Shown here piece after piece: positions 41,084 to 41,176 of a stretch of DNA of 41,323 nucleotides. The notes beneath the pieces were generated by a model. The model was not told the origin of the DNA. It made no database searches and saw nothing but the letters and a program-made list of their open reading frames with translations. The DNA is from Escherichia coli (lineage in GTDB: Bacteria > Pseudomonadota > Gammaproteobacteria > Enterobacterales > Enterobacteriaceae). The first letter of the stretch is position 1; the number at the start of each line of letters is the position of its first letter. The translations under genes and the position numbers were made by a program. The DNA lies in the NCBI RefSeq assembly GCF_003334785.1, contig NZ_QOWV01000025.1; one strand, written 5' to 3'.

Positions 41084-41129
41084 ATTCATATTTAAAATGT
41101 TAAATTGAATTGATATTTTAAATATGAAT
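41084..41129. promoter_or_regulatory. 15-bp perfect inverted repeat in the AT-rich chiA upstream region
   Basis: ATTCATATTTAAAAT (41084-41098) and its exact reverse complement ATTTTAAATATGAAT (41115-41129), 16-bp spacer; 150-190 bp upstream of the chiA ATG. Confidence 0.5.
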
Positions 41130-41176
41130 AATTTATTCGTTCTGACAGTACGAATAAGATATGCCGTCAACAAATG

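Follow-up and report, generated by a model that had tools for sequence, protein, structure and literature searches.

Among the cryptic, H-NS-silenced genes of Escherichia coli K-12, classic examples are the chitinase gene chiA and those for its type II secretion system. The spacer upstream of chiA holds a long, perfect inverted repeat. The question raised by this locus is whether the symmetry of the repeat marks a specific control site. If it does, the repeat would offer a handle on the activation of chiA and on the natural variation between its 15-bp and 17-bp forms. A first-pass annotation of the 41,323-nucleotide stretch of E. coli DNA analysed here (the window) proposed that the repeat is either a binding site for a dimeric regulator or a cruciform-prone element. 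Our analysis bears out the location of the repeat and the non-random nature of its symmetry, but the meaning that was proposed for it is unsupported by any of the tests that we carried out. These examined geometry, known motifs, RNA ends, conservation among orthologous promoters and compensation in the arms, and each was either negative or uninformative. We lean towards the view that an AT palindrome in the H-NS-silenced tract upstream of chiA was duplicated in inverted orientation, and that the symmetry of the resulting repeat is incidental. We found no description of the repeat in the accessible literature, and the genomic-SELEX and Rac-prophage papers contain chiA only in tables or reference lists.

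The chiA-tufA spacer and its inverted repeat

A query spanning positions 40900-41240 of the window matches many complete E. coli chromosomes with 100% identity, and the flanking genes are annotated as chiA and tuf. The chiA gene (38243-40936, minus strand, ATG at 40936) lies downstream of the repeat and encodes an 897-amino acid bifunctional chitinase/lysozyme. The stop codon of tufA, also on the minus strand, lies near position 41228, and the repeat falls within the 291-bp spacer, of 30% GC, between the two genes. The tufA gene ends in an intrinsic terminator (41176-41204, minus strand) with a stem at 41204-41177 and a folding energy of -18.5 kcal/mol. The Term-seq 3' end of tufA, at position 3470093 of NC_000913.3, corresponds to position 41176 of the window.

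According to PMC3950696, the transcription start of chiA was located by 5'-RACE at position 3467918 of NC_000913, confirming the earlier mapping of Francetic et al. (2000). Coordinate mapping places the ATG of chiA at position 3469853 of NC_000913.3. Because we take this ATG to be at position 3467875 in version.2 of NC_000913, using a presumed offset between the versions, the published start maps to position 40979 of the window on the minus strand, 43 nt before the ATG. The only fitting promoter-like match on the minus strand consists of a -35 hexamer, TTGAAG (41014-41009), and a -10 hexamer, AATAAT (40991-40986), separated by a 17-bp spacer. The mapped start lies 7 nt downstream of the AATAAT hexamer, which supports the coordinate mapping, and the chiA core promoter spans 40979-41014 on the minus strand.

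At the other end of the gene, just past the chiA stop codon, a perfect 10-bp hairpin that contains G+C (AATGGGCTAC / GTAGCCCATT, with a 5-nt loop, 38177-38201) is probably the chiA terminator. The E. coli ChiA protein is polymorphic in length (897, approximately 799 and approximately 701 amino acids) through the gain and loss of N-terminal carbohydrate-binding repeat modules, and these N-terminal repeats are collapsed in several short-read assemblies.

The inverted repeat consists of a left arm at 41084-41098, ATTCATATTTAAAAT, and a right arm at 41115-41129, ATTTTAAATATGAAT, which is the exact reverse complement of the left arm. Direct reading of the DNA confirms the 15-bp arms and the intervening 16 bp that the first-pass annotation had described, and the measured distance of 148-193 bp from the chiA ATG agrees with its estimate of 150-190 bp. 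Relative to the mapped transcription start, the left arm occupies -105 to -119 and the right arm -136 to -150; the complete element is 46 bp long and the centres of its arms are 31 bp apart. The spacer between the arms (41099-41114) is 16 nt long in K-12, where it includes a repeat-shortening substitution, G41099, and the variable sites 41101, 41107 and 41112. Elsewhere among the haplotypes it measures 12 nt (41101-41112). When two mismatches are allowed, the arms lengthen to 20 nt (41084-41103 / 41110-41129) around a 6-nt loop.

The arms themselves are built around a palindrome. A perfect 13-bp palindrome, ATATTTTAAATAT, lies inside the right arm at 41113-41125, and in the 17-bp form of the repeat each arm contains a perfect 13-bp palindrome of the type ATATTT-W-AAATAT. 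The centres of these two palindromes, at 41094 and 41119, are 25 bp apart. Each arm is composed of this AT-only palindromic motif and ATTC/GAAT flanks, and there is one G-C pair in the 15-bp stem. A tandem-repeat model with units of approximately 25 bp was also applied and no periodicity was found.

Shuffling indicates that the symmetry is more than AT-richness would produce. Among 5000 dinucleotide shuffles of the 291-bp spacer (loop of at most 40 nt), only one contained a perfect inverted repeat of at least 15 bp; with the spacer in its A41099 form, 20,000 such shuffles yielded none. The main repeat is the longest perfect inverted repeat of the entire 41-kb window, exceeding every terminator stem. 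It is real, and it is far from chance.

A second palindrome, TTATTCG(T)-N-(A)CGAATAA, lies at 41133-41157, which is -154 to -178 from the chiA start. The first-pass annotation had described it as a pair of 7-bp arms, TTATTCG (41133-41139) and CGAATAA (41151-41157). The palindrome is indeed present, but its arms measure 8 bp (TTATTCGT / ACGAATAA) with a 9-nt spacer, and it has no statistical significance, since a perfect repeat of at least 8 bp is found in 41% of shuffles (P = 0.41). In BL21, the substitution A41156T alters this palindrome without compensation. The second palindrome is at chance level, and we do not treat it as functional.

Variation and distribution of the repeat

The spacer is carried by 3151 of the 5426 complete E. 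coli genomes that were searched; the rest, for example O157:H7, are without chiA. Position 41099 is an A in all seven of the sampled non-K-12 haplotypes, which gives perfect 17-bp arms (41084-41100 / 41113-41129) separated by a 12-nt spacer. K-12 has a G at this position, which cuts the repeat to 15 bp. The exact 17-bp repeat was counted in 1527 genomes, and versions one mismatch away from it, mostly the K-12 G allele, in 1525. Thus, about half of the chiA-positive genomes have the perfect 17-bp repeat and about half have the weakened K-12 form. Parsimony indicates that the K-12 G41099 allele is derived, which would make the 15-bp repeat a slightly decayed 17-bp repeat.

Further substitutions are found within the element. 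The left arm of one haplotype (L016) carries an A41096G change without compensation. Changes at the inner positions 41101 and 41112 are also uncompensated, and the pair that these positions form is broken in two haplotypes. A covariation test of the hairpin across the haplotypes revealed no compensatory change. Among eight haplotypes, whose divergence of 2-3% affords low power, 2 of the 34 positions in the arms are variable compared to 20 of the 258 positions in the rest of the spacer. The arms show no excess conservation by this test, which is a weak one at 2-3% divergence.

The main repeat is single-copy, occurring at one place per genome. No match to it was found in a phage collection. In a plasmid collection, the only near-full-length match is to a 4.9-Mb E. 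coli record, and the other is a weak 64-bp match to a 4-Mb Acinetobacter record. Exact-pattern scans of metagenome and viral collections produced nine matches, all nine of which represent the same chiA-tufA locus with at least 97.9% identity over approximately 390-520 bp. This single-copy, single-context distribution rules out a repetitive extragenic element, a MITE, an IS end or a mobile element.

For comparison with other genera, we used chiA orthologues with 70-76% protein identity from five lineages: L005 (Superficieibacter-like), L008/L009, L010, L011 (Citrobacter rodentium) and L022. In all five, chiA lies directly downstream of tuf; bfd-bfr follows in four of the five, and in four of the five the bfd-bfr DNA is approximately 17% diverged from that of K-12. 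The chiA upstream regions of these lineages are 24-31% GC, and the five promoters contain no long inverted repeat besides the tuf terminator. The C. rodentium promoter has only a 9-bp repeat (ATTAAAATA/TATTTTAAT). When the E. coli promoter is included, no 8-mer is common to at least five of the six promoters and the number of shared 7-mers equals the null expectation. Thus, the six chiA promoters have nothing in common beyond AT-richness. Given its absence from the five comparison promoters, the repeat is specific to E. coli. ChiA homologues with 82-91% identity were considered as intermediate alleles and set aside: their loci are identical to that of K-12 except that the repeats within chiA are collapsed or variant, and they are uninformative on the origin of the inverted repeat.

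Regulator, hairpin and cruciform readings

The repeat may be the operator of a specific chiA regulator. Because the element spans 46 bp and contains two 13-bp palindromes 25 bp apart, such a regulator would probably be a tetramer or a dimer of dimers, and it might be a counter-silencer, for instance with the repeat as a BglJ-RcsB-responsive element. The extremity of the symmetry relative to chance and the two palindromic sub-sites, ATATTT-W-AAATAT, speak for this reading, which we nevertheless consider rather unlikely. In a classical dimeric operator, the half-sites are about one helical turn apart and the site measures approximately 14-25 bp, with repressors bound at or near the core promoter and activators at approximately -40 to -95. 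The repeat departs from this pattern in its geometry and in its absence from orthologous promoters. Its span, the 31-bp distance between its arm centres and its far-upstream location at -105 to -150 are unlike those of a simple dimer operator, the orthologous promoters of the other genera hold neither a comparable repeat nor a shared k-mer above the null expectation, and in the low-powered comparison of haplotypes the arms vary as often as their flanks. The uncompensated changes in the arms and the presence of the weakened form in about half of the genomes likewise argue against an operator.

We also compared the arms to known operator motifs. NagC and Mlc, the GlcNAc/chitobiose regulators, are biologically the most plausible candidates for a chitinase gene, and their operators share with the repeat dyad symmetry, AT-richness and a location upstream of a chitin-related gene. 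A NagC/Mlc site is a 23-bp quasi-palindrome in which, counted from a central base, TT at -6,-5 and AA at +5,+6 are invariant (PMC4288165). The corresponding positions are GT...AC around the centre at 41145 and AT...AT around the centres at 41119 and 41094; thus, the invariant TT/AA is missing, and the span and position of the element are atypical of NagC/Mlc operators as well. The ARG box recognised by ArgR has the consensus WNTGAATWWWWATTCANW, to which only matches with three mismatches exist (four in the window compared to 5.4 expected), and the pair TGAAT/ATTCG (41125-41139) is spaced by 5 bases rather than 4. The core consensus of IHF, WATCAANNNNTTR, has no exact match in 40937-41178. NagC/Mlc, ArgR and IHF therefore fail as candidates.

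The SlyA pattern, TTA-N6-TAA (PMC5797941), is found at 41092-41103 and at 41026-41037. The first of these places the relaxed pattern in the left arm, and SlyA has been reported to bind the promoter of the co-silenced gsp operon, which favours an operator. The window contains 11 copies of the pattern compared to 8.3 expected, however, and a count at this chance level is uninformative in AT-rich DNA. When compared by eye, Fur, Fis, DnaA, Tus/Ter, the RcsAB box and the YdaT box are poor matches. The same holds for dif/XerD, where 9 of 11 positions of the XerD arm agree, in K-12 only and without a XerC arm.

The idea of a counter-silencer draws on published work on BglJ-RcsB. BglJ-RcsB activates a lacZ fusion with the chiA intergenic region in leuO-deleted strains, and among the ten targets of BglJ-RcsB that were examined, chiA alone has a binding box that was neither characterised nor predicted (PMC3950696). 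The BglJ-RcsB target in the chiA spacer could be located within the repeat. The BglJ-RcsB motif is asymmetric, however, and mutation of a predicted motif approximately 150 bp upstream of the chiA start left activation unaffected (reported as data not shown in PMC3950696). That the two 13-bp palindromes are a cis-element by which a counter-silencer, either BglJ-RcsB or an oligomeric regulator, switches on the cryptic chiA gene strikes us as improbable. If it were true, about half of chiA-positive E. coli would carry, in the K-12-type G41099, a natural allele with partial loss of function.

Alternatively, the repeat could act as a single-strand hairpin. As RNA, it would be a back-up terminator or insulator for minus-strand read-through from tufA, or a structured plus-strand transcript that ends at a bidirectional tufA terminator; it could also act as single-stranded DNA. 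Plus-strand RNA is predicted to form an uninterrupted 20-bp stem closed by a 6-nt loop (-17.7 kcal/mol, z = -7.2), and minus-strand RNA into a hairpin of -11.3 kcal/mol that is followed by GUUUCUGUUUUU. The K-12 mismatches can pair as G-U on the plus strand, which is why it folds better than the minus strand. G-U pairing on the plus strand is kept by both of the natural changes in the arms (A41099G in K-12, A41096G in L016), but two of two wobble-compatible changes are expected by chance approximately one time in four. Covariation is lacking among the haplotypes, two of which have the broken inner pair 41101/41112.

The minus-strand hairpin resembles an intrinsic terminator in that it is followed by a U-rich run and lies directly downstream of the tufA terminator. 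Intrinsic terminators, however, combine a short loop and a G+C-rich stem with the U-tract and leave a measurable RNA 3' end, whereas the stem here is almost purely A-U, with only one G-C among 15 pairs, and the loop is 12-16 nt. A terminator scan found only the tufA terminator. Likewise, Term-seq lists only the 3' end of tufA at 41176 and none at the repeat on either strand, and the Cappable-seq supplement has no entries at the coordinates of the repeat. Weak promoter-like hexamers on the plus strand do overlap the repeat, but the number of such matches is not above the shuffled expectation. A scan of both strands of the spacer against Rfam 15 gave no family above threshold, the best score being 20.9 bits compared to a gathering threshold of 50, and the matches are driven by the tufA terminator hairpin. 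We regard a hairpin function, in RNA or in single-stranded DNA, as quite improbable.

The remaining alternative, extrusion of the repeat as a cruciform under negative supercoiling, would make it a structural switch or a fragile, insertion-prone site. The AT-only composition and the perfect 15-17 bp arms are suited to such a structure, and as single-stranded DNA the region is predicted to form two neighbouring hairpins with a combined energy of -16 kcal/mol (z = -5). On general knowledge of cruciform energetics, though, a 12-16 nt spacer is long for extrusion, and the twin-domain model predicts that the repeat, directly downstream of the very highly transcribed tufA, would experience positive supercoiling. 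The repeat has been hit by two independent IS events (IS1 at 41098/41099, and ISApl1-mcr-1 at approximately 41124), as would be expected of an insertion-prone site, but IS1 and ISApl1 favour AT-rich targets regardless, and the 96-bp region is disrupted in only 7 of the 3151 genomes. Taken together, these points make a functional cruciform very improbable.

H-NS silencing and the origin of the repeat

The AT-rich spacer upstream of chiA (40937-41175) is 26-30% GC compared to approximately 50% in chiA, and it contains 9.9 TpA steps per 100 bp compared to 4.8 in the window. The low-GC island is limited to approximately 40800-41180. In being AT-rich with frequent TpA steps, the spacer has the composition of an H-NS-silenced promoter. 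PMC3950696 attributes the finding that H-NS represses chiA to Francetic (2000), and reports derepression of the gene in an hns stpA mutant. The chiA spacer is similar to the bgl upstream silencer and the proU regulatory elements in that it is an AT-rich, TpA-rich tract upstream of an H-NS-repressed promoter that is relieved by BglJ-RcsB (PMC3950696). A further likeness to the bgl and proU silencing regions is that the low-GC island is restricted to the chiA promoter. A long perfect inverted repeat is not, however, a defining feature of the bgl and proU regions.

A second difference concerns the 10-bp high-affinity H-NS motif, TCGATAAATT, which Lang et al. reportedly described in 2007. In contrast to H-NS regions of the bgl/proU type, the chiA spacer has no close match to this motif: no match with two or fewer mismatches exists anywhere in the spacer, and the count in the window equals the chance expectation. 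The nearest sequence, TTGATATTTT (41110-41119), has three mismatches. We infer nonetheless that H-NS contacts the repeat itself.

The reading that we favour, an inverted duplication with incidental symmetry, can be set out as follows. The repeat would be a locus-specific inverted duplication of ATATTT-W-AAATAT plus its ATTC/GAAT flanks, located far upstream in the chiA promoter. Any contribution from it would probably be as ordinary H-NS-binding DNA, either extending or nucleating a silencing filament upstream of the -35 and -10 hexamers, and counter-silencers such as BglJ-RcsB would then overcome this filament. The dyad symmetry would probably be a mutational by-product that was perfect over 17 bp in the ancestral E. 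coli chiA segment and is now undergoing neutral decay, and it is probably not read by a dimeric protein. A palindrome reads the same on both strands, so a second copy of one such motif already accounts for the bulk of the repeat. That the copy is inverted can be seen solely from the central base and the outer ATTC/GAAT.

The repeat presumably arose by inverted duplication or by template switching. According to work associated with Ripley and with Lovett, strand switching within a molecule as it replicates can convert imperfect inverted repeats (quasipalindromes) of E. coli into perfect ones. Quasipalindrome and template-switch sites provide a mutational route to a long perfect repeat without selective maintenance, which fits the restriction of the repeat to E. 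coli and its neutral-looking decay. The chiA repeat differs from such sites in that no pre-duplication allele was found: every E. coli haplotype with the spacer has the repeat, and the other genera are unalignable. The proposed origin is therefore an inference. As a counterpoint, the persistence in about half of the lineages of a 17-bp repeat so improbable that 20,000 shuffles failed to produce it needs either constraint or a very recent origin. On present evidence, the repeat is a minor part of a promoter whose silencing was already known, and its main lesson is that a palindrome in AT-rich, silenced DNA can stand out statistically without having to be an operator.

Several other features of the AT-rich DNA in this region were observed. 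In three of the six lineages, E. coli (41109-41116), L005 and L010, the sequence ATATCRAT is present between -172 and -207 relative to the ATG of chiA. Four sites were found compared to 0.5 expected (P of approximately 0.001), although the motif was picked post hoc and this is a lead only. ATATCRAT resembles the core of published H-NS high-affinity sites. A second strongly AT-rich island, with 24-35% GC, occupies positions 26350-26900 of the window in the divergent gspA/gspC promoter region and holds a copy of the repeat arm with two mismatches (26754-26768). The island also contains the candidate SlyA site reported in PMC5797941, TTATATTAGTAA, which is present as its reverse complement at 26555-26566. 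A 12-mer, AAATATGAATAA, which comprises the end of the right arm and two further bases (41120-41131), recurs at 38161-38172, between the chiA stop codon and bfd and near the left edge of the chiA-specific segment. This recurrence is probably a chance match in AT-rich DNA; the 12-mer is not at the O157 junction and thus does not explain the indel.

Two ancient haplotypes of E. coli meet at this locus, and insertion sequences, one of them carrying mcr-1, have landed in it. The two haplotypes are deeply diverged between rpsJ and the tufA terminator (37301-41176 of the window; 5143-6000 of L002). The K-12-type haplotype contains gspA-O, bfr, bfd and chiA, whereas the O157:H7-type haplotype contains a gspO remnant, bfr and bfd, and is without chiA. 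The bfd-bfr DNA of the two haplotypes is only 78.9% identical, which is below the 82-83% identity between K-12 and other chiA-carrying genera. Given this low identity, one of the haplotypes probably entered E. coli by horizontal transfer. The right-hand breakpoint between the haplotypes, 41175/41176, coincides exactly with the Term-seq 3' end of tufA; the shared sequence ends with the core-gene transcript. Among individual strains, 2018-06-4CC (L018, NZ_AP027889.1, approximately position 2575) has a chromosomal ISApl1-mcr-1 element, associated with colistin resistance, in the right arm at approximately 41124 and directly upstream of chiA. In strain NCTC11023 (L001, NZ_LS483297.1, 5233-6001), IS1 lies where the left arm meets the spacer (41098/41099), and a deletion into chiA removes the N-terminus.
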